DNA of 64,000 bases from an uncultured Acidobacteriota bacterium (GTDB lineage: Bacteria > Acidobacteriota > Thermoanaerobaculia > UBA5066 > Gp7-AA6): contig CAWALG010000041.1 in NCBI GenBank assembly GCA_963782815.1, forward strand, positions 184,310-248,309, read 5' to 3'. The translations under genes and the position numbers were made by a program. This document shows positions 7,181-60,150 of the stretch, piece by piece. Under the pieces are notes generated by a model, which saw only the letters and a program-made list of their open reading frames with translations, was not told the DNA's origin and did no database searches. The first letter of the stretch is position 1. Every line of letters starts with the position of its first letter.

Positions 7181-7201
7181 ATGACAGGGTTCGGAGCAAT
7201 G

Positions 7202-31514: not shown

Positions 31515-31603
31515 GGAATGAGTTTACAGTCTACCCGCGGGCCGGCCCGGGCGCGAGGGGCGCCGCGGCCGGGGCACCATGCTTGCACGAAGAGGGGACC
31601 GTC

Positions 31604-32319
31604 ATGGGACTGAAGGAATACCAGAAGAAGCGCCGCTTCGACGTGACGTCCGAGCCGCCCGGAGAGGAGAAGGCGCGCCCGAAGTCCCGCCGGAAGCTCG
31701 GCTACGTCATCCAGAAGCATCGCGCCACCGCGCTCCACTACGACTTCCGCCTGGAGTGGAACGGCGTGCTCCTCTCGTGGGCCGTGCCGAAGGGGCCCTC
31801 GCTCGACCCTTCCGTCAAGCGCCTGGCGATGCAGGTCGAGGACCATCCGATCGAGTACGCGAAGTTCGAGGGGATCATCCCGGAGGGAGAGTACGGAGGC
31901 GGCACCGTCATGGTCTGGGACAACGGCGCGTGGGCCCCCGAATCCCCCGACGTGGACGCGGCGTTGAAGAAGGGGGACCTGAAGTTCCTTCTTGCCGGAG
32001 AGAAGCTGCGCGGCTCGTGGGTCCTCGTCCGCACCCGCGGCCGTTATCAGAGGGGAAGCCGGCGTGGCTCCTGATCAAGCACCGCGACGAGTTCGCGTCC
32101 ACGGAGGACATCGCGGAGACGCAGCCGCGTTCGGTCGTGTCGAATCGTCTCCTGATCGAGATCGCGCGGGACGAGGGGGGCAACATGGAGAAAGCCGCGA
32201 CCGGCGATCCGCCGGCCCTCCTCCAGAAGATGCTGAAGAACCCGAAGCTCGTCACCCCTCCGAAGAAGTCGAAGAAGAAAGCCGTCTGGCACTCGGAGGC
32301 GTTAGGTGATAGGTGGTAG
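31604..32319 (+). CDS. Stand-alone LigD 3-prime-phosphoesterase (PE) domain protein; 1 frameshift near 32060
   Basis: MGLKEYQKKRRFDVTSEPPGE...YVIQKHRATALHYDFRLEWNGVLLSWAVPKGPS is the LigD PE signature. C-terminus AWLLIKHRDEF... in the second frame. Last 6 codons lie inside a GGTAGGT hairpin repeat. Confidence 0.75.
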
Positions 32320-32380
32320 GTGATAGGGACCGGGGCCCCTGGCTTGAGCCCTACCACCTACCACCTACGACCTGCCACCT
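32303..32380. repeat. Heptamer-array hairpin, GGTAGGT family
   Basis: ttaggtgataggtggtaggtgatagggaccggggcccctggcttgagccctaccacctaccacctacgacctgccacc: left arm of GGTAGGT-like units, right arm its reverse complement. Confidence 0.85.
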
Positions 32381-32411
32381 TCTGACATGAGCGATCGGAT
32401 TCCCTTTCCGC

Positions 32412-34232
32412 GTGAAGCCGATGCTGGCGACTCTCGTGGACGACCCGTTCCACAAACCGGGCTGGGTGTACGAGGAAAAGTACGACGGATACCGGATCCT
32501 GGCGTACAAGGAGGGGAAGACCGTCACCCTGCTCTCGCGCAATGCGAAGGACCGCACGGTGTCGTTCTCGGATGTTGCTGCCGCGATCAAGACGCTGCGC
32601 GACAGGACGCTGCTCCTGGACGGCGAAGTCGTCGCGTTCGACAAGAAACTGGTCTCCCGCTTCCAGCTCCTTCAGCAGGGCGAGGTCCCGTACGTCTACA
32701 TGGTGTTCGACTGTCTCTATCGCAACGGGAAGGACCTGCGCGGCGACTCCGTTGCCCGTCCGGCGCGCGGCGCTCGAGGAGGCGATCGGCGACACCGAGA
32801 GGCTCTTCCCTTCGCGCCGGCTCGCGGACAACGGGCTCGAGGCGTTCAAGATGGCGAAGAAGAAGGGATACGAGGGCGTCATCGCCAAGGACGCCTCCGC
32901 TCCCTACATCGAGGGGCGCTCGACGAAGTGGTTGAAGGTCAAGGTCCACGAGGAGGAAGAATTCATCATCGTCGGCTTCACGCCGCCGGCCGGCTCGCGC
33001 ACGCACTTCGGCGCGCTGCTGCTCGGGGCCCATCGAGGGAAGGAGCTGCTCTACGTCGGCAAGGTCGGCACCGGGTTCACCAACCGGACGCTGAACGACC
33101 TCCACGCGAAGCTGAGGCCCCTCGCCGTCAAGACGCCGCCCGTCGTCAACCCGCCGCGCGAGAAAGGGGCGGTCTGGATCGACGCCGAAGCTCGTCGCGC
33201 AGATCTCCTACCACGAGCTGACGGCGGACCTGCGCCTGCGCCAGCCCGTGTACCTGGGCCTGCGCGACGACAAGAACACCGCCGAAGTCTTCCTCCCTGG
33301 AGGCAAGATGATGAGTCCCAAGTCCAAGGCGAAATCACAAATCACAAATCACAAATCACAAATCCCCCTCCGTCTCTCCAATCCTTCCAAGGTCTTCTGG
33401 CCCGAGGAGGGGTACACGAAATTCGACCTGGCGCGCTTCTACGACATGGTCTTTCCGAGGCTGAAACCGCACGTGAAAGACCGGCTGCTGTCGCTCGAAC
33501 GCTGCCCGGACGGAATCCAGGGGCAGTGTTTCGTTCAGAAGGAGAAGCCGCCGGGCATGCCGGAAGACACGCCGACGAAGGCGGTCAAGCACGAGAAGGG
33601 GACGACGAACTACGTCGTCGGAGGGAAGCTCGAGACGCAGCTCGCCCTCGTCAACCTCGGCTGCATCGCGGTGCACGTCTGGGGATCCCGGGCGGCCGAC
33701 CCGCGCAAGCCCGACTGGGTCTGTTTCGACCTCGATCCGGACTCGGGCGCCTTCGCCGACGCGGCCAGACGCCGGCTTGAAGGTGAAGGAGGCGCTCGAC
33801 GCGCTCGGCCTCGTCTCCTTCGCGAAGACCTCGGGCAAGAAGGGGATGCACGTCTTCGTCCCGATCCGCGTCGGGCCGGACACCGACGAGGTCCTCGGCT
33901 TCGCGCAGGGTCTCGGCGCGCGCCTGGCGGCGGCGTTCCCGAAAGAGCTGACCGTCGAGGGGCGCATCGCGGCGCGCAAGGGGCGCGTCTATCTCGATCC
34001 CTTCCGCAACGGCTTCGCCCAGACCGTCGTGTCTCCCTTCTGCGTGCGCCACGCCCCGCACGCCCCCGTCTCGACGCCCCTCGACTGGAAGGAAGTTCGC
34101 CCGACGCTCAAACCCGCCGACTTCAATCTCGGCAACTTCGCCGCGCGCCTGGAGAAGCCCGACCCCTGGGCGGATTTCTTCGAGAGCCGGCAGGACCTGA
34201 AGCCGGCGATCAAAGCGTTGAAGAGCCTCTGA
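32412..34232 (+). CDS. ligD: ATP-dependent DNA ligase LigD, ligase plus polymerase/primase domains (no PE domain); 3 frameshifts
   Basis: MKPMLATL...YEEKYDGYR (KxDG adenylation motif), then ...KGYEGVIAKD...KWLKVK, polymerase domain VFWPEEGYTKFDLARFY...HVWGS...DWVCFDLDP...KKGMHVFVPI. Shifts near 32760, 33190 and 33770. Linker contains the (AAATCAC)x4 repeat. Confidence 0.75.
33332..33365. repeat. Intragenic tandem heptamer (AAATCAC)x4-5 encoding KSQITNHKSQITNHKSQI in the ligD linker
   Basis: gaaatcacaaatcacaaatcacaaatcacaaatcc read directly. Confidence 0.8.
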
Positions 34233-34244
34233 AGGAAGAACGAC

Positions 34245-34343
34245 GGTCTAAGGTCGAAGGTCTAAGGTCTAAAGTCCCGGAGCTGATGTCCGCGGCCCCG
34301 GGACCTTGAGACCTTAGACCTTGGACATTAGACCTTAGACTTA
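34245..34343. repeat. Heptamer-array hairpin, AGGTCTA family
   Basis: ggtctaaggtcgaaggtctaaggtctaaagtcccgg...ccgggaccttgagaccttagaccttggacattagaccttagac: inverted arms of AGGTCTA units, loop about 25 nt. Fills the ligD to GT-C intergenic. Confidence 0.85.
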
Positions 34344-34348
34344 GCAGC

Positions 34349-35515
34349 GTGGACTCCCTTCAAAAACTGATCGGCTTTCTCGGACGGCACTTCGGTCCGC
34401 CGCGCCTCTTTCTCCTTGTCGCGGGGTGGGTCCTGGCGCTCGGGGTCTGGGGGATGGTCGCGCGCAACTGGCTCCCGATGGAACACAAGATCACCTGGGA
34501 AATCCCGCTGGAGCTGCGCGCGCCGCTCTACGCGAAGTTCGACTCCGGCTGGTACCTCTCGATCATGGACTGGGGATACGGCCCGCCCCCGCCGGTCGGG
34601 AAGCCTTCGAGCCACGCGTTCTTTCCGCTCTACCCGTTCACGGCGAAGGTCTTCCGCGACACGTTCGCGATGGACGGGTTTCACGCCGGGCTCCTGGTCT
34701 CCTACCTCTGCCTCTTCCTCGCCGCGTCCCTCTTCCTGCGCGAGGGGATCGCTCGGCTGGGGGAGGAGACCGGTTGGCGCTCGGTCTTCTTCCTGCTCCT
34801 CTTCCCGACCGCGTTCTACTTCGCGGCCGTCTATGCGGAGTCGATGGAGCTTCTCTTCGCGCTCCTCGCCTTCCGCGACGCTCGCCGGGGCGAGACCCTG
34901 CGCGCGGCGCTCTGGGGCGCGCTCCTGGGCCTGACCCGCGCCTTCGCTCTCGCGGCCGGCCCGGCGCTCTTCCTCGCGGCCCTCGAGGCTCCGAGACCGC
35001 CAGGGGCGCGGCGACTCCTGCGCGCGGTCTTCCTGGGGGCGGTCCCGGTGGCGGTCGTCTTCCTCTGGATCTACGGGATGGGATGGGCCAGGGGCGAGCC
35101 CGGCCTCTTCTTCCGGTCGATGGAGGGGTGGCATCGCGGCTCGAGCACGCTCGCCGGCGTCCAGGGCTTCTTTCGGGACTTCTACGACCACCTCCGGCTG
35201 GGGCATCTGAAGCAGGAGTTCTCCCTCGCGCTCGACTACTTCATGATCCTCGTCTTCGCGATGATCGGCGTGTACCAGCTCGTCCGCCGCCGCTGGTCCG
35301 ACGCCGCGTGGACCGCCTGCGCGGTCGGCCTCCCGATCACGACCGGGCTCCCCGGCGGCATCCCGCGCTTCTTCGCCGTCGTGTATCCCGCCTCCTTCGC
35401 GCTCGCGGAGGCGACGCGAAACTCCCCCCGCGCCCGCGCCCTCCTCTGGACCGCCTCCGGCCTCCTCCTGCTCGCGTGCGCCGCCCGATTCGTCAACTGG
35501 CAGTGGGTGGCGTGA
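34349..35515 (+). CDS. GT-C-fold membrane glycosyltransferase, PIG-V/GT76-like mannosyltransferase family
   Basis: Intact 388 aa, about 8 TM helices. KFDSGWYLSIMDWGYGPPPPVGKPSSHAFFPLYPF matches the WDxxWYxxIAxxGY...AFFPxYP hallmark of the PIG-V family. Confidence 0.6.
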   Translation: MDSLQKLIGFLGRHFGPPRLFLLVAGWVLALGVWGMVARNWLPMEHKITWEIPLELRAPLYAKFDSGWYLSIMDWGYGPPPPVGKPSSHAFFPLYPFTAKVFRDTFAMDGFHAGLLVSYLCLFLAASLFLREGIARLGEETGWRSVFFLLLFPTAFYFAAVYAESMELLFALLAFRDARRGETLRAALWGALLGLTRAFALAAGPALFLAALEAPRPPGARRLLRAVFLGAVPVAVVFLWIYGMGWARGEPGLFFRSMEGWHRGSSTLAGVQGFFRDFYDHLRLGHLKQEFSLALDYFMILVFAMIGVYQLVRRRWSDAAWTACAVGLPITTGLPGGIPRFFAVVYPASFALAEATRNSPRARALLWTASGLLLLACAARFVNWQWVA

Positions 35516-35600
35516 GAGGTGGTAGGTGGTAAGGTCGTAGGTGGTAGGGGGGCACGAATGACCCCGGTCCCTATCACCTTCCACCTACCACCTAACACCC
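35516..35600. repeat. Heptamer-array hairpin, GGTAGGT family
   Basis: gagaggtggtaggtggtaaggtcgtaggtggtaggggggcacgaatgaccccggtccctatcaccttccacctaccacctaacaccc. Occupies the whole intergenic between the GT-C stop and the MTase start. Confidence 0.85.
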
Positions 35601-35604
35601 TCCT

Positions 35605-36363
35605 ATGAACCCTCGCGAATACGAGGCGCTTCGCGAGGTCGAGGACCGGCACTGGTGGTTTGACGGATTAAGGCGCGACATCTCGACGGAGCTCGCGCGG
35701 ACGCGAACGGGGTTCTCACGGTGGCTCGACGCGGGCAGCGGCACCGGCGGTTCGCTGGCGAACCTTCAACTGCCGGAATCGCCAACGGCATACGGCGTCG
35801 AGGTCTCCTTCGACGGCCTCGTCCTGTCCCGTTCCCGCGGCCTGCGGCGGCTGGCGCGGGCATCCGCCGATGAGCTGCCGTTTCCGAGCGGGACATTCGA
35901 TCTCGTCACGTCGATCGATGTCCTCTGCCACCGCGGCGTCGACGTGCCGCGGGCCCTGGCCGAGGCGCACCGCTGTCTGCGGCTGGGGGGACTCCTGCTT
36001 CTCCAGGTGCCCGCGTTCGATTTTCTTCGGGGGGAACACGACGAGGCCGTCTGGACCAACCGGCGGTATCGGAAGACGGAGGTCGAGAGCCTCCTTTCGG
36101 CCGCGGGCTTTCGGCTGCGCCGCAGCTTCTACCGCAACTCGATCCTGTTTCCGGCGGCGGCGCTCCGGCGGTTGCGGCGTCGCCGCCCGCCGGCCGGCCG
36201 GGACGCGCGCTCCGACGTCGCGCCGGCGCCGAGGGCGCTCGGCCTGCTCTTCTCCGCGATGCTCGGGCTCGAGCGGAGCCTGAGGCGGATCGGCTTCTCC
36301 TTTCCGTTCGGCCTTTCGGTGTTCTGCGTGGCGGAGAAGATGGAGGCTCCCGTTCCACGATAA
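35605..36363 (+). CDS. Class I SAM-dependent methyltransferase (Methyltransf_11-like)
   Basis: WLDAGSGTGGSL motif I, FDLVTSIDVLCH, LRLGGLLLLQVP. Intact 252 aa. Confidence 0.75.
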   Translation: MNPREYEALREVEDRHWWFDGLRRDISTELARTRTGFSRWLDAGSGTGGSLANLQLPESPTAYGVEVSFDGLVLSRSRGLRRLARASADELPFPSGTFDLVTSIDVLCHRGVDVPRALAEAHRCLRLGGLLLLQVPAFDFLRGEHDEAVWTNRRYRKTEVESLLSAAGFRLRRSFYRNSILFPAAALRRLRRRRPPAGRDARSDVAPAPRALGLLFSAMLGLERSLRRIGFSFPFGLSVFCVAEKMEAPVPR

Positions 36364-36397
36364 GATTTTTCGCAAGCGGTAACGGGAGGTTCTGAAA

Positions 36398-37543
36398 TTG
36401 ATTCCGGTGTGGGAGCCGGTCCTGGACGGCAACGAAGAGCGGTATGTGCGCGACTGCCTGGAGACGAACTGGATCTCCTCGCTCGGCCAGTACATCACCC
36501 GCTTCGAGGAGGCCTTCGCGCGCTGGTGCGGAATGCCTCACGCGGTGGCGTGCTCGAGCGGGACGGCGGCCCTTCACCTCTCGCTCGTCGCGCTCGGGAT
36601 CGGCCCGGGAGACGAGGTTCTCATCCCCGACTTCACGCTCATCGTCTCCGCCAATACCGTGATCCTCGCGGGCGCTCGGCCGGTGCTGGTGGACGTGGAG
36701 CCGAAGACCTGGTGCCTGGACCCCGGGAAGATCGAGGCGAAGATCACGCCCCGCACGCGGGCGATCATGGCCGTGCACATGTACGGCCACCCCTGCGACA
36801 TGCCGGCCATCGGCGAGATCGCGCGCCGCCACAACCTCGCCGTCATCGAGGACTGCGCCGAAGCGCACGGCGCGGAGATCGCGGGGCGGAAGGTCGGCAC
36901 CTTCGGCGACGCCGGGTGCTTCAGCTTCTACGGCAACAAGATCCTGACGACCGGCGAAGGCGGAATGGTCCTGACTCGCGACGGGGAGCTCGCCGCCAGG
37001 CTCCGCCTGCTGCGCGACCAGGGTTTCGAGCCTCCGCGCTTCGTCCACCGGGTCGTGGGCTTCAACTACCGGCTCACCAACGTGCAGGCCGCGATCGGGC
37101 TCGCGCAGACGGAAAAGGCGGACGAGAAGGTGCGCTTGAAGCGCGAGATCGCCAGCTGGTACCTCGCGCGGCTCGGCCCCTGCGAGGACGTCGAAGTCCC
37201 GACGGAGGCTCCCGGCGCGAAGAACGTCTACTGGATGCTCGGCGTCAAGCTCGGTCCGCGCTTTCCGCAGGGGCGGGACGCCGTGATGGACGAGCTCAAG
37301 GCAAAGGGGATCGAGACGCGCGCCTTCTTCTGCCCGATGCATCAACAGCCCGTGTTCCAGGGAAGCGATCCGCGGTATCCCGACGTCCGCGGCGACTATC
37401 CCGTCTCCGAAGACCTCTGGAACCGCGGCCTGTACCTGCCCTCCGGCCTCGGCCTGACCAGCTCGCAGGTCCATGAGATCGTGGACAGGCTCCTGGAGTG
37501 CCGCCGTCCTTCACCCTCTCCCCCCGGGAGAGGGAAGGGGTGA
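36398..37543 (+). CDS. DegT/DnrJ/EryC1/StrS-family PLP-dependent sugar aminotransferase (ArnB/FdtB-like)
   Basis: Intact 381 aa. VWEPVLDGNEERYVRDCLETNWISS, ACSSGTAALHL, FSFYGNKILTTGEGGMV (Lys of FYGNK as PLP site). C-terminal 10 codons run into the palindromic repeat at 37512. Confidence 0.8.
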   Translation: MIPVWEPVLDGNEERYVRDCLETNWISSLGQYITRFEEAFARWCGMPHAVACSSGTAALHLSLVALGIGPGDEVLIPDFTLIVSANTVILAGARPVLVDVEPKTWCLDPGKIEAKITPRTRAIMAVHMYGHPCDMPAIGEIARRHNLAVIEDCAEAHGAEIAGRKVGTFGDAGCFSFYGNKILTTGEGGMVLTRDGELAARLRLLRDQGFEPPRFVHRVVGFNYRLTNVQAAIGLAQTEKADEKVRLKREIASWYLARLGPCEDVEVPTEAPGAKNVYWMLGVKLGPRFPQGRDAVMDELKAKGIETRAFFCPMHQQPVFQGSDPRYPDVRGDYPVSEDLWNRGLYLPSGLGLTSSQVHEIVDRLLECRRPSPSPPGRGKG

Positions 37544-37547
37544 GGGC
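37512..37547. repeat. GC-rich palindrome, family C (CCCTCTCCCCCCGGGAGAGGG[A/T]AGGGGTGAGGGC)
   Basis: caccctctccccccgggagagggaaggggtgagggc. Second copy at 44725..44760 inside the lipB-lipA junction. Confidence 0.75.
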
Positions 37548-37564
37548 GCCAGTCTCCGCCCAGG

Positions 37565-38314
37565 ATGATGAATAACGCCACCGAGAACCCCGCGCCCGAG
37601 ACCCTCCCCGACCCGCGCGTCTCGATCGTGCTCGCCACCTTCAACGAGCGCGACAACATCGTGGACACGATCCGGAGCATCTTCGAGCACGTCGGCGACT
37701 CCGTCGAGATCATCGTCGTGGACGACGATTCACCCGACCAGACCTGGCACCTCGTGGAGAACCTGCGTCACCCCCGCGTCAAGCTCATCCGCCGCGTCGG
37801 GACGCGCGGCCTCGCCTCCGCGTTCAATCGGGGGATTCTCGAGAGCCGCGGCGCGGTCGTCGGATGGATGGACGCCGACATGTGCATGCCGCCGGCGATG
37901 CTGCCCGGCATGATCGGGCTCCTGGACCGATACGACGTCGTCGTCGGATCCCGTTACGCCCCCGGCGGCAGGGACGACCGCGTGTGGCTGCGCGTCCTCG
38001 CCAGCCGCGCCATCAACGGGCTCGCCACCCTCGTCCTGGGCTACGGCATCCGCGACTACGACAGCGGGTTCGTCGTGCTGCGGCGCGGCGTCTTCGACAA
38101 GGTGTCTCTCATCCCGACCGGCTACGGCGCCTACTTCATGGAGTTTCTCTACAACTGCCGGCGCAAGGGGCTGACCGTCCACGAAGTTCCCTATACGTTC
38201 CGCGACCGGCAGAAGGGGATCTCCAAGTCCGCGCCGAGCCTCCTCCGGTTCTTCCGGACCGGCCTCCAGTACGTGAACCGCATCTTCGTCGCGCGCCTGC
38301 GGCACGAGGAGTGA
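37565..38314 (+). CDS. GT2-family polyprenol-phosphate glycosyltransferase (DPM1/ArnC-like)
   Basis: Intact 249 aa. VSIVLATFNERDNI, VVDDDSPDQT, GWMDADM (DxD), VVGSRY. Confidence 0.8.
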   Translation: MMNNATENPAPETLPDPRVSIVLATFNERDNIVDTIRSIFEHVGDSVEIIVVDDDSPDQTWHLVENLRHPRVKLIRRVGTRGLASAFNRGILESRGAVVGWMDADMCMPPAMLPGMIGLLDRYDVVVGSRYAPGGRDDRVWLRVLASRAINGLATLVLGYGIRDYDSGFVVLRRGVFDKVSLIPTGYGAYFMEFLYNCRRKGLTVHEVPYTFRDRQKGISKSAPSLLRFFRTGLQYVNRIFVARLRHEE

Positions 38315-38317
38315 GTC

Positions 38318-38698
38318 CTGGCGCACGCGATTGTCACCGCCGGTTTCGAGAGGAAGGACGAGCGGGGCGTGTTTCGCGAGGTCCTGAACGGCTTCGAGGC
38401 GCGGACCTTTGTCTGCGGAGAGATGAAGGAAGGCGCCGTCCTCGGCAATCATTTCCACAAACGGACGCGCGTCTTCTTCTACCTGACTCGCGGCGCGGCG
38501 CGGGTCGCGACGGTGGACGTCGGGACGGGGGAGAGAGATTCCTTCAGCCTGAAAGCGAACCAGGGCTGCTTCTTCGAGGTGAACGAGTCCCACGCCGTGC
38601 GATTCACCGAGGGGAGCGAGTTCGTAATGCTGAAGTCCCTCGCCTACGATCCTGCCGATCCCGACACCTACTCGCACCCGGTCGATGGGAAACCCTGA
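38318..38698 (+). CDS. WxcM/FdtA-like cupin (sugar 3,4-ketoisomerase-like)
   Basis: FERKDERGVFREVLNG...GNHFHKRTRVFFYLTRGAARV...NESHAVRF...YDPADPDTYSH fits the FdtA/WxcM cupin. No ATG; GTG at 38369 or CTG at 38318, so the start is uncertain. Confidence 0.6.
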   Translation: MAHAIVTAGFERKDERGVFREVLNGFEARTFVCGEMKEGAVLGNHFHKRTRVFFYLTRGAARVATVDVGTGERDSFSLKANQGCFFEVNESHAVRFTEGSEFVMLKSLAYDPADPDTYSHPVDGKP

Positions 38699-39163: not shown

Positions 39164-39175
39164 CCGGCGAAAATC

Positions 39176-40767: not shown

Positions 40768-40805
40768 GATATGCCACGCAGGCGCGCCCGGGTTATCCTT
40801 CCGGC

Positions 40806-41841: not shown

Positions 41842-41854
41842 TTTCCTGAGTCCA

Positions 41855-41970
41855 TTCCGTCATCCCTTCGCGCTCTCCCTGTCATCCTGAGCGAAGCGAA
41901 GGATCTGCTCTCGCGTTTCCAACACTTCGGGAGCAGATCCCTCGTCGCTTCGCTCCTCGGGATGACAGGG
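41855..41970. repeat. Palindromic repeat, family A
   Basis: ccctgtcatcctgagcgaagcgaaggatctgctc ... gagcagatccctcgtcgcttcgctcctcgggatgacaggg. Confidence 0.8.
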
Positions 41971-42019
41971 CAGGGCGTTGAGACCGGTGGCTCGTTCGGC
42001 AGATTTCCAGCGCAGCCCA

Positions 42020-42948: not shown

Positions 42949-42958
42949 CTCTCGCCCG

Positions 42959-45459: not shown

Positions 45460-45465
45460 GACAGT

Positions 45466-46671: not shown

Positions 46672-46772
46672 GAATACGAGGAGAGTCCGGCGCGTCGGCC
46701 GAGCCGAGGAGTCGGCGCAGGTGTCATTCTGAGGCGCAGAGCGCCGAAGAATCTAGCTGCCAGGCAAATCCA

Positions 46773-46885
46773 GGAGCAGGTCCTTCGCTGCGCTCAGGAT
46801 GACAGGGCGGAGCGAGGGGCTCAGGCTGACACCTGGCGCCGGAGACCTGAACCGCAGTCCCCTGACACCTGTTCGCTGACAGCTA
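46773..46885. repeat. Composite repeat: half-copy of family A palindrome (46773..46808) followed by CAGGTGT-family segment (46822..46885)
   Basis: agcaggtccttcgctgcgctcaggatgacaggg; then ctgacacctggcgccggagacctgaaccgcagtcccctgacacctgttcgctgacagc. Confidence 0.6.
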
Positions 46886-48334
46886 CCCCAAATCGAATTC
46901 ACCCTTCTCCAGAGTCTTCTTCACCGAGGCCATGAACTTGTCCGCGTCGGCGCCGTCGATCAGGCGGTGGTCGAAGGAGAGCGCGAGGTAGCCGACGGTG
47001 CGGATGCCCAGCGCGTCGTTGCCCTTCTCGTCGGTCACGACGACCGGGCGCTTCTCGATCGTGCCGACGCCCAGGATCGCGACCTGCGGCTGCGGGATGA
47101 TCGGCGTGCCGAAGAGGGAGCCGAAGACGCCCGGGTTCGTGATCGTGAAGGTCCCGCCGTGGATCTCCTCCGGCTTCAGCTTCTTGCCGCGCGCGCGCTC
47201 CGCGAGGTCCTGCGCCGCCCGCGCGAGGCCGAGGATCGACTTCTCGTCGGCGTTCTTGATGACCGGCACGATCAGTCCCCAGTCGAGCGCCACGGCCATG
47301 CCGAGGTGGACGTCCTTGTGGTAGACGATGTTCTCGCCGTCGATCGAGGCGTTGACCTGCGGGAACTCCTTCAGGGCCTGGACGCAGGCGCGGAAGATGA
47401 ACGGCAGATACGTCAGCTTGACGCCGTTCTTCTGGAGGAACGCGTCCTTGTGCTCGGCGCGCAGCCGCGTGAGCGCCGAGTAGTCCACCTGGAAGACCGT
47501 CGCGACGTGCGCCGACGTGCGCTTGGAGAGCGTCATGTTCTCGGCCGTGATTCGGCGGATCCTCGACATCGCCACGACTTCGTCGCGGTCCGTGACCGCC
47601 ATCGCCGGACGCGGAGCCGGCGGCGGCGCCGCCTGCGGCTCCGCCCTGCCGACTTCGACGGCTTGCGCCTGCGCGCCGGCCGCGGACCTGGCGGGGGCGG
47701 GCGCGGCCGCCACCTTGCGGTTCTCGATGTAGGAGAGGATGTCGTTCTTCGTCACGCGGCTGTGGATCCCCGTTCCCTCGAGCTGCGTGATGTCCACCGC
47801 GTGCTCGGACGCGATCTTGCGCACGAGCGGGGAGGAGCGCCGGCGGATCCGCTCCTCGATCGACTCGACGCGTCCCCCTTCCGGCGCGGCAGCGGGAGGC
47901 GGAGGCGGCGCGGGAGCGGCGGGTTCGGGCGCGGGTTTCTCCATCGGCTTTTCGGCCGCCTTTTCCGGAGCTGTTGCCGCCGGAGACGGCGGTGCCGGAG
48001 GCGCCGGTTTCGCTTCCGCCGGCTGGGGAGCCGCCGGGGCCGCAACGGCCGGAGCGTCCGCGGCCCTGGCCGTGGCGGAGGGCGCGGCCTGTTCGCCGGT
48101 CTCGCCGATCGAGGCCACGACGGTATTGATTGCCACCGTCTGCCCCTCGGCCACCTTGATCTCCAGGAGCGTGCCGGCGACGGGGGACGGGATCTCGGCG
48201 TCCACCTTGTCGGTGGAGATCTCGAAGATCGGCTCGTCCCTCTTGACGGTCTCGCCGACCTTCTTGAGCCACTTCGTGATCGTCCCCTCCGCGATGGATT
48301 CGCCCATCTGCGGCATGATGACGTCGGTTGCCAT
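46883..48334 (-). CDS. 2-oxoacid dehydrogenase E2 component (dihydrolipoyllysine-residue acyltransferase)
   Basis: ATG at 48334 with GGAGG upstream. Lipoyl domain MPQMGESIAEGTITKWLKKVGETVKRDEPIFEISTDKVDAEIPSP, Ala/Pro linker, catalytic domain ending DHRLIDGADADKFM. The listed ORF start 48526 is a spurious extension. Confidence 0.85.
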   Translation of the reverse strand: MATDVIMPQMGESIAEGTITKWLKKVGETVKRDEPIFEISTDKVDAEIPSPVAGTLLEIKVAEGQTVAINTVVASIGETGEQAAPSATARAADAPAVAAPAAPQPAEAKPAPPAPPSPAATAPEKAAEKPMEKPAPEPAAPAPPPPPAAAPEGGRVESIEERIRRRSSPLVRKIASEHAVDITQLEGTGIHSRVTKNDILSYIENRKVAAAPAPARSAAGAQAQAVEVGRAEPQAAPPPAPRPAMAVTDRDEVVAMSRIRRITAENMTLSKRTSAHVATVFQVDYSALTRLRAEHKDAFLQKNGVKLTYLPFIFRACVQALKEFPQVNASIDGENIVYHKDVHLGMAVALDWGLIVPVIKNADEKSILGLARAAQDLAERARGKKLKPEEIHGGTFTITNPGVFGSLFGTPIIPQPQVAILGVGTIEKRPVVVTDEKGNDALGIRTVGYLALSFDHRLIDGADADKFMASVKKTLEKGEFDLG

Positions 48335-48524
48335 ACGCCTCCTCTCGACGAAAACAGCCTCGACATCAACAGAATAGCATCCGACGCAATCGCGAACGGC
48401 AAATCCGGCCGGGCGGCCGCCGCGCGTTCTCCACCGTTCACCGGCGCGGCGCCACCGTTGGCCGAAGAAGGCGGGACATGCCGCCGCGGCGCGCGTAACT
48501 TCATGGCGAGGAGGTGGAGCCAAC

Positions 48525-49703
48525 ATGAGTTACGTCAGTGAAGGGCGGCGGATCTCGAGGCTGATCGCCGGGGCATTGCTGCTGCTCGTCGGCGCCCTGT
48601 TCGTCCTGCAGAATCTCGGTTACGTGCGGGCGGGACAGTTCGGAGATTACTGGCCGCTGTTTCTCGTCTGGATCGGCCTCTCCCGGATGCTCGGGCCCGC
48701 GCGGGCGCGCCACTTCGCGTCGGGGCTCGTCATCTTCGCTCTCGGCGTCTTCTTCCAGCTCGACCGGCTGGACGTGATCTGGGTTCCGATGCACCGGTTC
48801 TGGCCTCTTCTCCTGATCGCGGTCGGCTTCGGGTTGATCGCCGACTCGTTGATCGGCCGCAGGCGCGGAGAGACCGGGATCGCGCCCTCGTCACAGGCCG
48901 GCCCCGGAGGTGGAGCGTGAACGGGCGGCGCGGGCTATCACGGCGACGGCCGGATCGTCTGGGGTGGGATCCTGATCCTGCTCGGCCTCATCTACGCGCT
49001 CGACGCGTTCGGCGTCCTCTCCGCGGGCGACATCCTCCGGTACTGGCCGCTGATCCTCATCGGGGTCGGCGCCACGAAGATCTCGCAGGCTCGTTTCTCG
49101 TCGCAGCGGAACGGGGGGTTCATCCTGGTCGCGATCGGCAGTGTCTTCCTGCTCCGGTCTCTCCACCTCGTCTGGTTCCACTCGCGGGACGTGTGGCCGG
49201 CCGTTTTTCTCCTGGTCGGAGGATTCCTCGTCTGGCAGGCGTTGACACGCCGCCAGGCGCCGGCCGGCGGGGATGGCGAGAAGGGCCCGGGCGAGGGCGT
49301 CCTGGAGAACGCCCGAGAGGGACTCGCGGCCTCGCGGGAGGGGCGGGATGGACGGATGGAACTGGGCTCGGTCCTGAACGAGTTCGCCTTCATGGGGGGC
49401 GGAGACCGCGTCGTGCGGGCCCAGGACTTCCGGGGGGGAGACGTGACCGCCATCATGGGAGGCTTCGGCATCGACCTGCGCGGCGCGGCGATCGCCGGAA
49501 ACTCCGCGACGATAAACATCTTCACGCTCTGGGGAGGGGTGGACCTGAAGGTCCCCGAGGACTGGAACGTCGCGGTGGCCGGCGTGCCGCTCCTGGGCGT
49601 CTTCACCAACTCCTCGCACGCGTTGCGGCAGGGGGACCCGGCGGCGAAGACGCTCGTCGTCAAGGGGGTCGCGATCATGGGCGGTGTCGAGGTGAAGAAC
49701 TGA
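48525..49703 (+). CDS. LiaF-like membrane protein (two 4-TM modules plus DUF2154-like C-terminal domain) interrupted by an in-frame TGA at 48918
   Basis: Same frame before and after the TGA: ...GFGLIADSLIGRRRGETGIAPSSQAGPGGGA-stop-TGGAGYHGDGRIVWGGILILLGLIYALD...VWPAVFLLVGGFLVWQAL...NIFTLWGGVDLKVPEDWNVAV...MGGVEVKN. No start codon follows the TGA. Confidence 0.6.
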
Positions 49704-49711
49704 GGACGAGA

Positions 49712-49796
49712 TTTCAGTTGTCAGTTGTCAGTCTTCAGTTTCTGGGAGTGGAACTGAACGGAACTGATAACTGACAACTGATAACTAACAACTACT
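49712..49796. repeat. Heptamer-array hairpin, CAGTTGT family
   Basis: tttcagttgtcagttgtcagtcttcagtttctgggagtggaactgaacggaactgataactgacaactgataactaacaactac. Confidence 0.85.
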
Positions 49797-49799
49797 CTC

Positions 49800-50855
49800 A
49801 TGCATCCGATTCTCGCGCGCAAAGGGAGGTTGTTACCGTACCTGGCGGCGTCGCTGCCGCTCGGCGCGCTCCTGACCGTGCTGCTCGCCCGCCCGGGCGC
49901 GTACTCGCTCGCGCAGGCGGCCGCTGTCGCGTTTCCGCTCGCGGTCGTATACGCGTTCCTGGGTCTCTCGGCCTGGTATCCGTGCCGCAGTCTTCCCTTG
50001 ACGCGCGCGAAGGCGCCGGTCCTGCTCGCGTCGCACGGCGGCGCCGCCCTCGTCACGAGCGCCGCGTGGGTCCTGCTCGGAGCCGGGATCGGACGTCTCC
50101 TCGAGCAGGTCCCGTCCCTCGCCGGCATGAGCGATGGCTACGCCGCTCAGGTCCCGCCGCTTTTCGCGGTCGGCGTTCTCCTCTACCTCCTGTCGGTCGC
50201 CCTGCACTACGTGCTCCTCGCCTTCGAGGCGGCGAGGGAGGCGGAGCGGCGGGAGGCGCAGCTGCGGCTGCTCGCGCGGGAGGCGGAGCTGAAGGCCCTG
50301 AAATCGCAGGTGCAGCCGCACTTCCTCTTCAACTGCCTGAACTCGATCAGCGCGCTCGCCGGAAGCGACCCGGCGCGCGCGAGAGAGATGTGCCTGGGTC
50401 TCGCGAGCTTCCTCCGGCAGAGCCTCGCGGTCGGCGAAAGGGCGAGCATCCCCGTCGGGGAGGAGCTGTCGCTCGCCAGAAGCTACCTGGACGTCGAGCG
50501 GATCCGCTTCGGGAAAAGGCTCGCCGTGGAGGAGTCCATCGAGCCCTCGGGAGAGGAGTGCATGGTGCCGCCGCTCCTCCTGCAGCCGCTCGTCGAGAAC
50601 GCGGTCGTGCACGGGATCGCGACGCTCGCCGAAGGAGGCGCCATCCGCCTGGAAGCCAGCCGCACGGGCAACCACCTCCGGATCGTCATCGAAAACCCGT
50701 TCGATCCCGACGCGCCGTCTCGCGGCAGCAGCGGCCTTGGCCTGAAGATGGTGCGAGACCGGCTCGCCGCCCTGTACGGTCCGGACGCGATGTTCGCGGC
50801 CAGGAGGCTCGAGGGGCGTCATTTGGCAGTGATCTCGATTCCCGCGAGGGTCTAA
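49800..50855 (+). CDS. Sensor histidine kinase, LytS/YehU family (His_kinase PF06580-type)
   Basis: Intact 351 aa. Four to five N-terminal TM helices, QVQPHFLFNCLNSI H-box, LLLQPLVENAVVHG, GSSGLGLKMV ATPase motifs. Confidence 0.85.
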   Translation: MHPILARKGRLLPYLAASLPLGALLTVLLARPGAYSLAQAAAVAFPLAVVYAFLGLSAWYPCRSLPLTRAKAPVLLASHGGAALVTSAAWVLLGAGIGRLLEQVPSLAGMSDGYAAQVPPLFAVGVLLYLLSVALHYVLLAFEAAREAERREAQLRLLAREAELKALKSQVQPHFLFNCLNSISALAGSDPARAREMCLGLASFLRQSLAVGERASIPVGEELSLARSYLDVERIRFGKRLAVEESIEPSGEECMVPPLLLQPLVENAVVHGIATLAEGGAIRLEASRTGNHLRIVIENPFDPDAPSRGSSGLGLKMVRDRLAALYGPDAMFAARRLEGRHLAVISIPARV

Positions 50856-50865
50856 GTGTGAGAGA

Positions 50866-50955
50866 CAGGTGTCAGGTTTCAAGGTGTCAGGGGAAATGCG
50901 GTGCCAGGTGCCAACAGGTGTCGACGAGCCTGGTGCAACCGACACCTGACACCTG
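50866..50955. repeat. Heptamer-array hairpin, CAGGTGT family
   Basis: gacaggtgtcaggtttcaaggtgtcagggg...acaggtgtcgacgagcctggtgcaaccgacacctgacacctg. Confidence 0.8.
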
Positions 50956-51463
50956 CTATTCCGAGAGCCTCTCCTGCTTCCAGATTTCGTTGCGCAGGTT
51001 TTATCTCCGAAGGAGATCCGGACAGCCCACGTGAAGATCGCGCCGGGCCAGAAGGTCCAGGTCATCGCTTACGGGGGCCGCGTTTCGAATGGTTCCCGTG
51101 CATTCCAGCGCCAAGCGGATCGCGGCTTTCTCAAGGGGATTGAAACCCGTGCCGCGCGAACGGGATCGAGACCTTGAACGTCGTCGATCTCCCCGGCTGG
51201 CTGGAGTATTTCGCCGACGGACCGAACGCTAAATTCTTCGCGGCCGTCGATCCGTCAATGCCGATCCCTGGGGCCTACGCTCAGCCTCTACGAAGTGTTC
51301 AATCGGGTCGTCGAGCAGCGCGGCGAGGATGCCTTGCCTTCCAGCGTCGCCCTGATGCAGCGGGCGCGTATGGCCGATCAAGTGTGATGCTCACGGCCGT
51401 CAGGGCTGCGAGCCCAGGATGGTTGATTTCAAAGGTCAAGCGGATCATCTCAAGCGGCCGACG

Positions 51464-51566
51464 GTATCTGGTATCAGTTGCCAGGTGTCAGGTCGGGCAC
51501 CGGACTTCGCGTCCCTGGCACCTGATACCTGCATTTCACCTGACACCTGTTCCCTGACACCTAAGC
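51464..51566. repeat. Heptamer-array hairpin, CAGGTGT family, immediately upstream of the response regulator
   Basis: tatcagttgccaggtgtcaggtcgggcaccggacttcgcgtccctggcacctgatacctgcatttcacctgacacctgttccctgacacc. Confidence 0.8.
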
Positions 51567-51583
51567 CTCATTACCATCCCCAC

Positions 51584-52375
51584 ATGGTCGACTCCATCCG
51601 CGTCCTGATCGTGGACGACGAGCCTCCGGCGCGGGCGATCCTCCGCGAGATGCTCGGCCGCATCCCGGGCGTCTCCATCGTGGGAGAGTGCGGCGACGGG
51701 ATGGAGGCGGTCAAGGCCGCCGGGCAGCTCAAGCCGGACGCGGTCTTTCTCGACATCCAGATGCCGAGACTCGACGGCTTCGAGGCCATGGAGCTCCTCG
51801 ATCCGGCGATCGCCGTCGTCTTCGTCACCGCCTACGACAACTACGCCGTCAAGGCGTTCGAAGTCCGCGCTGTGGACTACGTCCTGAAGCCCTTCAGCGA
51901 GGCGAGGCTCGCCGAGGCTCTCGGGCGGGCGCGGGAGCGCGTGCGAGAGAAGGGGAGGCCGGACGCGGGCGCGCTGGCGGCAGCGTCCCGTCCGCCCGGC
52001 CAGTTTCTCTCCCGCATCGTCGTGCGCGACGGCCCGAACATCCGAGTCATCCCCGTCGAGAAACTCGACTTCGCCGAAGCACAGGACGACGACGTCCTCT
52101 TCAAGACAGAAGGAAAGAAGTACCGCAAGCCCCAGACCCTCGCGAGCCTGGCCGAATCGCTCGATCCCGCGCGCTTCCCGCGCGTCCACCGCTCCTACGT
52201 GATCAACCTCGACCGCCTCCAGCGAGTCGAGCTCTACGCCAAGAACAGCCACATCGCGATCCTCGCCGACGGCTCCCGAATCCCCATAAGCCGCGAAGGC
52301 CACGCCCGCCTGATCCAACTCTTAGAAGGGCGTGCCTCCTCGTCGATGGTCAATAGTCCAAACGCTCCCGCCTGA
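51584..52375 (+). CDS. LytTR-family response regulator (LytR/AlgR-like)
   Basis: ATG at 51584. REC domain IRVLIVDDEPPAR...DAVFLDIQMP...VVFVTAYD. LytTR domain ...IVVRDGPNIRVIPVEKLDFAEA...HRSYVINL. Confidence 0.85.
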   Translation: MVDSIRVLIVDDEPPARAILREMLGRIPGVSIVGECGDGMEAVKAAGQLKPDAVFLDIQMPRLDGFEAMELLDPAIAVVFVTAYDNYAVKAFEVRAVDYVLKPFSEARLAEALGRARERVREKGRPDAGALAAASRPPGQFLSRIVVRDGPNIRVIPVEKLDFAEAQDDDVLFKTEGKKYRKPQTLASLAESLDPARFPRVHRSYVINLDRLQRVELYAKNSHIAILADGSRIPISREGHARLIQLLEGRASSSMVNSPNAPA

Positions 52376-52381
52376 CTTCAA

Positions 52382-52855
52382 CTATCGCTCTCGGCTCATC
52401 GCCTTCCACATGCGGGGGTCGAGGGAGAGGGGCTCGGGTTTGCCGATACGGATTTCGGCGAAGAGGGGGTGGGCGGGGTTCAAGAGGTAGTTCTTCTCCT
52501 GCGGGATGACGGCGGACGGGACGGCCAGGATCGGGGTCTTTCGCTCTTCGGCCCAGCGAGTCCCGATCTCGGCGAGCGCGTCGGGGGCGGGGTACTTTCT
52601 CCAGTTGCGGGGCAGCGCGCTCTCCTCGACGGATGTCATCGGGAGGTCCTTCGGGACTTCGGCGGGGATCGCGACGAGATCCGGCGGTGCGGCGGCCCTG
52701 GGGAGGTTGACGAAGTACTCGAGGAGGGCGAGCGACAGGGTGGCGGAGGTGTAGACGACGGCGGTTCCGCGGCGGTTCCATCGGCCGCCGGCGAGTCGGG
52801 AGCCTTCGCCGTCGAAGGCGGTGTGCTTTTTTCGGCAGAGACGCCAGAGTTTCAC
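52382..52855 (-). CDS. RES-domain toxin
   Basis: KLWRLCRKKHTAFDGEGSRLAGGRWNRRGTAVVYTSATLSLALLEYFVNL is the RES (Arg-Glu-Ser) NAD-targeting toxin fold. GTG at 52855 chosen because the longer ORF start lies inside the hairpin repeat. Confidence 0.75.
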   Translation of the reverse strand: MKLWRLCRKKHTAFDGEGSRLAGGRWNRRGTAVVYTSATLSLALLEYFVNLPRAAAPPDLVAIPAEVPKDLPMTSVEESALPRNWRKYPAPDALAEIGTRWAEERKTPILAVPSAVIPQEKNYLLNPAHPLFAEIRIGKPEPLSLDPRMWKAMSRER

Positions 52856-52940
52856 GAGGTGGTAGGTGGTAGGTCGTAGGTGGTAGGGGCCAGAAGGGAT
52901 TCCTCCGTCCCTATCACCTACCACCTTCCACCTACCACCT
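52856..52940. repeat. Heptamer-array hairpin, GGTAGGT family, between the antitoxin stop and the toxin start
   Basis: gaggtggtaggtggtaggtcgtaggtggtaggggccagaagggattcctccgtccctatcacctaccaccttccacctaccacc. Confidence 0.85.
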
Positions 52941-60015: not shown

Positions 60016-60035
60016 TTCGCAGGCAGACGTTTTCC

Positions 60036-60150
60036 CTGATCCTCAGCCCTTCGCTCTCTCCTGTCATCCTGAGCGCAGCGAAGGATCTGCTCCGGTGGCT
60101 TCGGTCTCCGATTCCGCTCGTCGCCTGGCTCCTCGGGATGACAAGGGGAG
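60036..60150. repeat. Palindromic repeat, family A
   Basis: cctgtcatcctgagcgcagcgaaggatctgctccgg...cctcgggatgacaagggg. Confidence 0.75.

Follow-up and report, generated by a model that had tools for sequence, protein, structure and literature searches.

Short gaps between genes in a 64,000-nt stretch of DNA (the window) from an uncultured soil Acidobacteriota bacterium of the class Thermoanaerobaculia contain hairpins whose arms are tandem heptamers, and the heptamer differs from one gap to another. This raises the question of how one architecture can be kept while its unit changes, and whether the elements are dispersed copies, local products of slippage, or functional RNA structures.

Heptamer hairpins in the window

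The elements are inverted repeats of 75 to 105 nt with three to five heptamers per arm, stems of uniform length (about 28 to 35 bp), and a GC-rich centre of 14 to 33 nt. The loci in the window are listed with their folding energies as RNA and the z values of these against 200 shuffles.

193 to 230, + strand: single-arm array (AGGTGGT)x5.4, directly 3' of a stop codon (TRF, 96% matches; z, +2.5)
32297 to 32380, no strand: hairpin E1, arms AGGTGAT/AGGTGGT, core TAGGGACCGGGG (TRF and inverted-repeat finder; -51 kcal/mol; z, -5.7)
33332 to 33364, + strand: coding/linker array (AAATCAC)x4.7 (TRF, 100% matches)
34245 to 34340, no strand: hairpin E2, arms GGTCTAA/TTAGACC (TRF and inverted-repeat finder; -61.9 kcal/mol; z, -9.2)
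35517 to 35599, no strand: hairpin E3, arms AGGTGGT, core as in E1 but in reversed orientation (TRF; -52.2 kcal/mol; z, -5.3)
46822 to 46880, - strand: degenerate remnant of a CAGGTGT composite element (z, -0.2)
49709 to 49794, no strand: hairpin E5, arms CAGTTGT/ACAACTG, including TAACTGA (TRF and inverted-repeat finder; -41 kcal/mol; z, -6.1)
50866 to 50955, + strand: E6, apparent left part of a composite CAGGTGT element, matching the left landmarks of the copies in relatives L145 and L147 (z, -1.8)
51464 to 51562, + strand: E7, apparent right part of a composite CAGGTGT element, matching the right landmarks ...CCTGCATTTCACCTGACACCTGTTCCCTGACACCT (z, -3.5)
52857 to 52940, - strand: hairpin E8, arms AGGTGGT (TRF and inverted-repeat finder; -63.9 kcal/mol; z, -9.1)
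59633 to 59665, + strand: array (AATCCAA)x4.6 within ORF 59069-59749 (TRF)

TRF, the inverted-repeat finder, and folding agreed on the five period-7 inverted array pairs described in an earlier note on this DNA (E1, E2, E3, E5, and E8); as RNA they fold with -41 to -64 kcal/mol (z, -5.3 to -9.2), and none of the 200 shuffles was as stable. That note had also counted four hairpins with the unit GGTAGGT. Those at 32297, 35517, and 52857 do share a core, whereas the array at 193 has no reverse-complement arm and forms no hairpin. Among its three CAGGTGT hairpins, the one at 51464 is moderate, the one at 50866 is weak, and the one at 46822 does not fold. Judged by their landmarks, E6 and E7 seem to be the two ends, left and right, of a composite element of ~150 nt, of which relatives have intact copies. 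The remnant at 46822, located between the stop codon of the 2-oxoacid dehydrogenase E2 gene and the PMT_2 start, has a full-length counterpart in L145 (L145:733-897). Both coding arrays that had been noted are present: the one at 33332 separates the LigD ligase and Prim-Pol domains, and in relatives L003 to L008, L001, and L015 the corresponding position is taken by (CCAAAAT)n or (GTCCAAA)n; the ORF around the other had no Pfam match.

The period is specific. The window contains 12 lag-7 segments compared with 0 to 5 at other lags, and 220 kb of related DNA contained 77 period-7 arrays (2.3 in shuffles), 6 of period 6, and 2 of period 8. The arms are also polar: the G-rich arm is 5' in 26 of 29 cases, the inverted arm is downstream in at least 17 cases and upstream in none, and "AG" occurs in the 5'-arm unit of 10 of the 14 non-AGGTG hairpins but in only 1 of the 14 3' arms. 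The lineage uses more than 15 unrelated unit types. One mismatch per heptad is tolerated between arms; the arms of E1 in L015 have diverged from each other (CAGGTGT versus CCACCTA), L148 has noncomplementary arrays, and single-arm and chimeric arrays occur. The same architecture was found in independent assemblies from JGI, NCBI, and ENA.

The elements take up the entire gap from a stop codon to the next start codon or lie between two convergent stops, with boundaries about -5 to +10 nt from the stop and start codons (~25 elements). E1 separates LigD_N (phosphoesterase) from the LigD ligase, whose start is at 32387. E2 begins 12 nt past the LigD stop (34232) and leaves 8 nt before the start of a PIG-V/GT-C-type mannosyltransferase gene (GT-C; 34349), and E3 begins 1 nt past the GT-C stop (35515) and leaves 5 nt before the methyltransferase (MTase) start (35605). 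E5 begins 5 nt past the LiaF-like stop (49703), with 5 nt left before the histidine kinase (His_kinase; HK) start (49800); E6 is 3' of the HK stop (50855), and E7 ends 21 nt before the LytTR response regulator (RR) start (51584). On the minus strand, E8 extends from 5 nt past the Xre antitoxin stop (52946-52948) to 1 nt before the GTG start of the RES toxin (52853-52855), both genes being assigned by Pfam. The hairpins span the stop-to-start gaps almost to the base, and the flanking genes are those named previously, from the ligD region through the RES toxin. Because a C-rich arm abuts the start codon, no Shine-Dalgarno sequence is possible. The hairpin had also been credited with the last codons of LigD_N. 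The frame does stop at a TAG within the 5' arm of E1, but this assembly has a frameshift in the gene, and the L002 stop comes before the arm.

Turnover at orthologous junctions

At the same junctions in relatives (flanking proteins 74 to 97% identical), we found a different unit, a changed copy number, or a spacer of 0 to 29 nt, and elements were gained, lost, or replaced even between genomes with 93 to 97% identical flanking proteins. Rapid turnover of heptamer hairpins between close relatives is directly visible here. The GT-C-MTase junction has eight unit types or no element in relatives, its units across relatives including AGGTGNT, GGGAATC (in the L002 hairpin), ACGTGAA, GACGGAA, CAGCTTT, and GAGTCGA; its element-free alleles have a GTGA overlap, a 4-nt spacer, or a 22-nt spacer, and even sisters whose proteins are 93% and 96% identical differ in its state. 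The pattern is repeated at LiaF-HK (CAGCTGT, CAGTCGA, a single array, or an 11-nt spacer), at HK-RR, and at Xre-RES, where L147 has an element and L148 has none (4-nt spacer). Orthologous copies of E1 are present in L002, L014, and L015, and a homologous GACGGAA element is common to L012 and L013, while closer relatives of L012 carry others.

Several changes keep to a 7-nt register, as the earlier note had surmised: (i) the orthologous intergenic comparison that it suggested showed copy number differing by whole units between the window and L023; (ii) one arm can change in concert (GAGTCGA in L015 and GAGTTGA in L021, with the 3' arm CTCACAA in both); and (iii) units keep a small core, GAC+4 at LigD-GT-C and NNCTGAN at LiaF-HK, while the remainder drifts, CTGA being retained in every LiaF-HK 3' arm. 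At LigD-GT-C, every 3'-arm unit is a variant of the flank motif TAGACTT, which is the final 3' unit of E2 and is present also in hairpin-less alleles. This unit matches a motif that was there already, so that local seeding is favoured at this junction rather than insertion.

Dispersal, slippage, and the alternatives

The change of unit between loci had been taken to exclude copy-and-paste spread. This exclusion is not supported. The 17-mer GGTGATAGGGACCGGGG occurs exactly at 32318 to 32334, as its reverse complement at 35563 to 35579, and as a close variant at 52909 to 52926. At three loci of the window, the AGGTGNT copies have TAGGGAC(C)GG as a common asymmetric core, which occurs in either orientation. 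The CAGGTGT family, likewise, forms an element of ~150 nt, whose nonperiodic landmarks are conserved at no fewer than three loci in a genome. Asymmetric cores that recur at separate loci, either way round, show that the families also disperse. It had been considered that the copies might be divergent members of a known family with identical target-site duplications. No such duplication was found at the elements, and the junctions showed no insertion signature beyond the trivially duplicated TGA(A) of the ancestral GTGA overlap; the 64-kb window contains no transposase, Y1/HUH, RAYT, or other candidate mobilising gene.

The explanation that we favour, with doubt and confidence about evenly balanced, is that the elements are nonautonomous, selfish palindromic repeats that behave like REPs or REPINs, have heptanucleotide microsatellites as arms, are reshaped by slippage in steps of 7 nt, and are tolerated at operon junctions. 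New copies would arise at the DNA level by insertion or conversion free of target-site duplication, the most evident candidate process being a single-strand mechanism of the HUH/RAYT type. Replication slippage would then expand, contract, and homogenise each arm, and the arms may be kept roughly complementary either because compact hairpins are selected or through quasi-palindrome correction by intrastrand template switching, so that the unit could drift far and the architecture still persist. Elements would survive almost only at stop-to-start junctions, where a tight hairpin probably disturbs operon transcription and coupled translation least because it keeps stop and start adjacent. Effects in the RNA would come second, whether mRNA 3'-end protection, an RNase III site, or damping of the downstream cistron. 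This explanation does not account for the register of 7 or for the G-rich arm being 5'; neutral slippage would not predict the uniform three- to five-unit arms or this polarity, and both features hint at some further constraint or mechanism.

It is possible, though we doubt it, that the elements are primarily functional intercistronic RNA hairpins, which might juxtapose stop and start for termination-reinitiation coupling, mask the downstream start, serve as a site for RNase III or for 3'-end stabilisation, or act as partial terminators lacking a U-tail that set cistron ratios (for example, antitoxin above toxin). The exact placement, the exclusion of a Shine-Dalgarno sequence, the uniform stem length, and the covariation of the arms where a junction keeps its hairpin while the unit changes would suit such roles, and similar repeats are transcribed in other bacteria (PMC4692102), where an influence on translation has also been suggested (PMC4679880; bioRxiv 10.1101/2022.06.06.494920). 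However, close relatives have short spacers and no element at the same junctions, the asymmetric core can face either way with respect to the genes, and mismatched, even noncomplementary, arms are tolerated. A structured RNA with covarying stems, suggested previously, is not supported: among 909 scored arm positions, sense-strand mismatches comprised 33 G.U and 39 A.C, showing no G.U excess (a weak test if the mismatches are simply young), and the hairpins had no Rfam match. For the terminator family, also suggested previously, a T-tail is lacking.

An origin purely in situ is unlikely. Slippage would amplify a local heptamer, template switching at a small pre-existing GC hairpin would add the inverted arm, and family likeness would reflect convergence or ectopic conversion. 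The TAGACTT variants at LigD-GT-C, the CTGA kept at LiaF-HK, the single-arm and chimeric arrays, and the lack of duplications and of a transposase in the window are consistent with this origin, but nonperiodic cores of 12 to 17 nt common to unlinked loci in both orientations, the ~150-nt CAGGTGT element, and the GACGGAA element of L012 and L013 are not. Still less probable is a dedicated or polymerase-intrinsic writer of heptads (a reverse transcriptase resembling telomerase, or a repair polymerase, for example LigD Prim-Pol, in reiterative synthesis) that would extend both 3' ends of a break with G-rich heptamers before they are joined head to head. The G-rich array does run 5' to 3' toward the centre on both strands, like two fused telomere-like ends, the convergent arrangement is known elsewhere (PMC4692102), and the variable, junction-like centres and exclusive period would fit. 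Against this, no candidate enzyme was identified, many units coexist in one genome, unlike the product of a single templated writer, and dispersed families with conserved centres and gradual unit drift are explained without one. Binding arrays for a heptad-reading global regulator or nucleoid protein are very improbable: Streptomyces SARP-type regulators bind heptamer direct repeats (PMC5930380), Geobacter heptamer elements are annotated as putative global regulator sites (PMC2700814), and the "AG" bias of the 5' arms could reflect recognition, but the numerous unrelated units change at fixed sites and the elements are dispensable at orthologous junctions.

Relation to described repeats

The element class had been supposed to be undescribed, but repeats of this type are on record from other bacteria, where they were left without explanation. 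According to the reports that cite Mrazek, Guo and Shah 2007 (PMC4679880, PMC4692102), many bacteria have more heptanucleotide repeats than any other class of long SSR, and slippage has been proposed for them (PMC4692102, PMC4679880). As far as these accounts go, long prokaryotic heptanucleotide SSRs, cyanobacterial STRR heptamers, and Beggiatoaceae TAACTGA repeats resemble the elements described here in their strong preference for period 7 (PMC4679880), and such SSRs are also intergenic, near start codons, and sporadic in phyletic distribution (PMC4679880, PMC4692102). They are mostly direct arrays of up to 43 units, inverted pairs being the exception there and the rule here (PMC4679880). The Beggiatoaceae unit, TAACTGA, is also part of the 3' arm of E5 (49762 to 49786).

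Xanthomonas genomes have 70 to 75 convergent inverted GGGAATC pairs each, which are able to form stem-loops (Rehm et al. 2015, PMC4692102), vary in length and sequence between Xcc and Xac, and are under-represented between divergent genes (PMC4692102, PMC4679880). Like the elements here, these and the Nostoc GGGGAYT repeats are tandem 7-nt units (mode, about 4), about 90% intergenic and near the end of the upstream ORF (PMC4692102), and GGGAATC itself forms the arms of the L002 hairpin at GT-C-MTase. In contrast, each of those genera has one dominant G4-prone unit, whereas most unit types here are not of the G4 type, nearly all intergenic arrays here are paired and fill stop-to-start gaps exactly, and unit replacement at a fixed junction is not reported for those genera (PMC4692102).

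REPINs are ~100-nt hairpins of two inverted REPs, and REP, BIME, and REPIN elements are mobilised by RAYT (Y1 HUH) transposases (PMC3333891, PMC3116915). They share with the present elements dispersal as extragenic palindromes in both orientations, within operons and at gene 3' ends, polymorphism between strains, and the lack of target-site duplications. The REP head GTAG recurs in the (GGTAGGT)n arms, although most unit families here are without it. REP arms are not tandem microsatellites, and a genome has one REP family or a few, linked to a cognate RAYT gene; no RAYT gene was seen in the 64-kb window.

The multicopy heptanucleotide elements of Geobacter metallireducens, GGACCGG x4 (49 copies) and MTYCTGA x5 (Aklujkar et al. 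2009, PMC2700814), likewise have four to five tandem heptamers and lie between and within genes. Their authors drew them as strand-switching (palindromic) sites and interpreted them as regulator sites or RNA elements, without a comparative analysis of turnover (PMC2700814). A CTGA-type unit occurs both in these elements and at the LiaF-HK junction.

Period-7 arrays and hairpins in the window

The heptamer feature is real and non-random. Over 220 kb (the window and related contigs), 77 period-7 arrays were found versus 2.3 in shuffles, while the neighboring periods 6 and 8 yielded 6 and 2 arrays, respectively. In the window itself, 12 segments were detected at lag 7 versus 0 to 5 at the other lags scanned (lags 4 to 12). 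The first five of the following hairpins are inverted pairs of period-7 arrays (arms) identified with TRF and an inverted-repeat finder, and the last two are graded by their folding:

32297-32380, inverted period-7 pair, unit AGGTGAT/AGGTGGT
34245-34340, inverted period-7 pair, unit GGTCTAA
35517-35599, inverted period-7 pair, unit AGGTGGT
49709-49794, inverted period-7 pair, unit CAGTTGT
52857-52940, inverted period-7 pair, unit AGGTGGT
51464-51562, moderate hairpin, fold z -3.5
50866-50955, weak hairpin, fold z -1.8

In single-strand folding, the five strong hairpins have energies of -41 to -64 kcal/mol (z -5.3 to -9.2), and no shuffle equaled them. All of the loci listed above had been proposed as hairpins in an earlier note on this DNA, as had two that did not hold up: 46822-46880 folds no better than chance (z -0.2), and 193-230 is a single (AGGTGGT)x5.4 array for which no partner arm was found (fold z +2.5). 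The arrays reported in coding linkers at 33332 and 59633 were both recovered by TRF. The former (33332-33364) lies in the linker joining the LigD ligase and Prim-Pol domains. This linker carries A/C-rich heptamer arrays in relatives also, with a varying unit (AAATCAC, CCAAAAT, or GTCCAAA; comparison contigs L003:59-97, L005:2283-2318, L007:8646-8682, L001:9063-9089, and L015:8969-9023), and in some genomes the ligase and Prim-Pol are separate genes, the heptamer array then being intergenic.

The window (68% G+C) is an ordinary chromosomal region according to Pfam analysis of its ~45 genes, which include envelope glycosylation, split LigD, lipoate, and threonine genes, an RHS protein, a LiaF-LytS-LytTR module, and an Xre-RES toxin-antitoxin pair. 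Two of the window proteins have homologues that their sources assign to Thermoanaerobaculia/Acidobacteriota. A co-occurring transposase or nuclease, for which the earlier note proposed looking elsewhere in the genome, was not found within the window, and no HUH gene was seen among these genes.

The hairpins occupy gene junctions with a precision of a few nucleotides. Measured in ~25 elements from the window and from related loci, the distance between a stop codon and the beginning of the hairpin is about -5 to +10 nt, and that between its end and the following start codon is -2 to +10 nt, except for two elements that are located between convergent stops. The 3' flanks that were read directly run straight into start codons, and one element provides the final codons of LigD_N. 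In this way, heptamer hairpins split or extend gene calls; they are also places where assemblies and annotations are especially prone to differ. In the LigD region (31583-34232), the phosphoesterase, ligase, and Prim-Pol frames contain at least four frame switches in 2.6 kb, and the upstream DUF2298 gene (29352-31514) is likewise broken. These genes are intact in the relatives L002 and L147, suggesting an indel-prone (long-read) assembly rather than pseudogenes. The hairpins themselves are not assembly artifacts, as more than 25 independent contigs from JGI, NCBI, and ENA show the identical architecture at orthologous positions. In one Acidobacteriota MAG, four heptamer elements with four units (AAGACGT, AGGTTTC, single-arm AGGTGAT, and AAGGTCC) are found within 2.6 kb (L036:3186-5762, on the contig of L147), and two of them exactly fill a convergent-stop gap.

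Turnover at orthologous junctions

The central result comes from orthologues of the mannosyltransferase GT-C (34349-35515), which were compared in 25 contigs (74 to 95% identity). The junction between this gene and the methyltransferase gene holds (AGGTGGT)n in the window and AGGTGAT/GTT, GGGAATC, ACGTGAA, GACGGAA, CAGCTTT, or GAGTCGA in relatives, and in other relatives it has no element, the genes overlapping by GTGA or being separated by a 4-nt or 22-nt spacer. According to the protein tree, sister contigs can differ in state (L006 versus L007, 93% identity; L005 versus L003, 96%), and the GACGGAA element is common to L012 and L013 and clearly homologous at 76% protein identity. The lineage offers a clean natural experiment in which one operon junction is empty, filled, or refilled with another unit in genomes a few percent apart. 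A second, independent region repeats this turnover pattern. The LiaF-to-histidine kinase junction contains CAGTTGT, CAGCTGT/CAGCCGT, CAGTCGA, or a single-arm array of GGGAGGC, and one relative, 97% identical, has an 11-nt spacer instead. At the Xre-to-RES junction, two genomes carry an AGGTGGT hairpin, and a third has a 4-nt spacer.

At the junction between LigD and the mannosyltransferase, the units are GGTCTAA, GTCCAAA, AGTCGAC, GGTTGAA, and AGTTGAT. Every 3'-arm unit there is GAC followed by four nucleotides, and all of the hairpins terminate in TAGACTT, which is present once in both hairpin-free alleles. It appears that TAGACTT seeded the local heptamer unit. This sequence (34333-34340 in the window), 8 to 12 nt before the mannosyltransferase GTG start, is conserved with or without a hairpin in L001, L002, L006, L007, L010 to L012, L015, and L023, and is TTAGCCT where the upstream gene differs; it could act as a -10-like element or in translation. 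At another orthologous junction, a G-rich, G-quadruplex-like (CGGGACT)x3-5 single-arm array lies 14 to 20 nt before the start codon, its unpaired form being conserved among relatives (L001:13900-13937, L007:13888-13912, L013:5025-5065, and L014:13998-14038).

Changes within the arms follow the 7-nt register. Unit-number variation was seen at an orthologous junction of the window and L023, where the centers are identical and the arms differ by one and two whole units, respectively. In L015 and L021, the 3' arm is CTCACAA in both, whereas the 5' arm is mostly GAGTCGA in the former and mostly GAGTTGA in the latter, one variant having spread across a single arm. Many stems have one mismatch per heptad, and at the LigD_N junction of L015 the arms have diverged (CAGGTGT versus CCACCTA). 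The kinase-to-regulator gap of L148 is filled by adjacent, non-complementary (GTTGAGA)x3 and (CTTCCCG)x3 arrays (7057-7152), which may be an arm-replacement intermediate. Given these whole-unit changes, one-arm spread, and diverged or non-complementary arms, each arm acts as a microsatellite loosely coupled to its partner.

Polarity and dispersal

A scan of one genome per species for a single unit, AGGTGNT x3, revealed at least 119 loci (one species each) in more than 10 phyla, including Cyanobacteria, Bacteroidota, Gemmatimonadota, Acidobacteriota, Chloroflexota, Actinomycetota, several proteobacterial classes, Planctomycetota, and others. Among the matches listed, an inverted (NCACCTA)n arm lies downstream in at least 17 loci and upstream in none. 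The polarity extends to other units, the 5' arm having more G than C in 26 of the 29 hairpins detected; among those whose units are unrelated to AGGTG, this is true of 11 of 14. TAGGTGN arrays reach 19 units among the matches listed and often adjoin heptamer arrays of other units (GAATCGT, CAATTCC, ACCAATT, AGTTTCG, and CCACTCG).

Within a unit family, the elements are dispersed. An asymmetric core, TAGGGAC(C)GG, lies beside the 5' arm of the AGGTGNT copies at three window loci that are not linked to one another, as well as of copies at orthologous and other loci in relatives, and this core occurs in both orientations relative to the flanking genes. Dispersed, near-identical extragenic palindromes in both orientations, a REP/REPIN trait, were thus found in the 64 kb and the contig fragments. 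The CAGGTGT loci represent a composite element of ~150 nt in which non-periodic landmarks are conserved. L145 has it at three loci and L147 at two; the window pieces at 50866 and 51464 are its left and right parts, ~500 nt apart. In L145 (4812-5756), a MazE-PIN toxin-antitoxin module with a full copy of the element on either side has been inserted between the histidine kinase and the response regulator, and elsewhere this gap holds an unannotated ORF (L147) or ~500 nt of apparently non-coding DNA (the window). The junction is an insertion hotspot. A single superfamily with a conserved center and free arms was also considered, but it was dropped because cores were found only at the family level (CGGGGCC, from a search over all unit families, is present in 6 of 35 centers).

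Relation to described repeats and possible origin

The odd excess of heptanucleotide repeats in bacteria has been noted since 2007, and in cyanobacteria even before that. As summarized in two other papers (PMC4679880, PMC4692102), Mrazek and colleagues found heptanucleotides to be the most abundant class of long SSRs and proposed polymerase slippage. In Xanthomonas, Rehm et al. described ~185 GGGAATC arrays per genome (mode, four units; ~90% intergenic), of which 70 to 75 form convergent inverted pairs that vary between sister species (PMC4692102). MacGregor reported TAACTGA repeats just upstream of start codons (PMC4679880), and in Geobacter metallireducens a four-heptamer element is present in 49 copies, alongside a five-heptamer class, MTYCTGA (PMC2700814). 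The class has therefore been described before, although the earlier note did not recognize it as such. The elements studied here share with the Xanthomonas arrays the exact 7-nt tandem units with a period-specific excess (77 versus 6 versus 2), the close, stem-loop-capable convergent pairs with the G-rich strand 5' on both strands (26 of 29), which is the arrangement reported there as "convergent," and the intergenic location near ORF ends, rare between divergent genes and varying between sister genomes. In contrast to GGGAATC, most units (AGGTGGT, GGTCTAA, CAGTTGT, ACGTGAA, and others) lack the GGG needed for four or more GGG tracts, the only ones qualifying being GGGAATC itself (L002) and two units of single arrays, CGGGACT and GGGAGGC, and a G-quadruplex fails as a general explanation. 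What is new here is the number of units in one lineage, near-universal pairing into hairpins, base-exact stop-to-start placement, the direct observation that units are replaced and lost at fixed junctions, and a polarity rule reaching beyond one unit.

The best reading, to which we give about even chances, is that these are REPIN-like palindromes with heptamer-microsatellite arms, shaped by dispersal and 7-nt slippage. A stem exactly spanning stop to start would hold both codons together, which we take to be why insertions are tolerated there. Since the C-rich arm abuts the start codon, no Shine-Dalgarno sequence can be present. REP/REPIN-RAYT is the closest model in behavior (PMC3333891, PMC3116915). 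The GTAG/GTGG head of REPs is present by construction in (GGTAGGT)n, and it also occurs in the GTCCAAA family, at its GGTAG...CTAC tops, but the head is absent from most other unit families, and no RAYT (Y1_Tnp) gene was found among the ~45 window genes or in the gene lists of related contigs. Cut-and-paste MITEs, which combine terminal inverted repeats with a target-site duplication, do not fit: no convincing target-site duplication was seen in filled versus empty sites at four junctions, where the shared flank is only TGA(A), as expected if an ancestral GTGA overlap had been pulled apart.

The main rival, which we regard as unlikely, is that the hairpin RNA is the selected function; some RNA effect may nonetheless exist. 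An RNA-maintained stem should tolerate G.U far better than A.C, but in 29 gene-oriented elements the arms form 756 Watson-Crick pairs, 33 G.U, 39 A.C, and 81 other mismatches. Together with the core in two orientations, which also speaks against the covarying RNA stem considered earlier, and the fact that close relatives do without the element, these counts point to a palindrome that is kept at the DNA level or is simply young. No Rfam match reached the gathering score in the window. The terminator alternative fared no better, as no T-run follows any hairpin scanned and a terminator/promoter scan flagged none. Shine-Dalgarno mimicry was also set aside: the anti-16S-tail sequence contains AGGTGAT exactly and many phyla have TAGGTGN arrays, but other units do not resemble a Shine-Dalgarno sequence, and the arrays are abundant also in Bacteroidota, which are not known to make much use of this signal. 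The idea that a stop codon can be read in one frame or another of every unit, which by eye holds for roughly 13 of 18 unit types, was too weak to claim.

Three simple rules describe the elements: period 7 only, a G-rich 5' arm, and exact stop-to-start placement. The exclusive 7-nt register, the uniform 3 to 5 units per arm, and the polarity with G-rich strands running into the center could be the work of a specific enzymatic process and not of generic slippage, although we consider this quite improbable. Such a process might extend 3' ends reiteratively at breaks or stalled forks and then join them head to head, or it might involve an HUH-type enzyme measuring heptads; if so, an unrecognized heptad-writing activity would be seeding operon junctions across many bacterial phyla. 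How palindromes evolve together with their microsatellite arms, whether hairpins can bridge stop and start without breaking translational coupling, and whether a specific enzyme takes part become directly testable questions.

A second dispersed hairpin family, ~95 nt long and not heptameric, has the sequence CCTGTCATCCTGAGCG(A/C)AGCGAAGGATCTGCTC...GGGATGACAGG. Its four window copies (0.03 expected; mfe, -54 to -69 kcal/mol) are as follows, and it is also present at L147:6916-7117:

7095-7215, minus strand, ~95-nt non-heptamer hairpin
41850-41970, plus strand, ~95-nt non-heptamer hairpin
46700-46835, minus strand, ~95-nt non-heptamer hairpin
60035-60155, plus strand, ~95-nt non-heptamer hairpin
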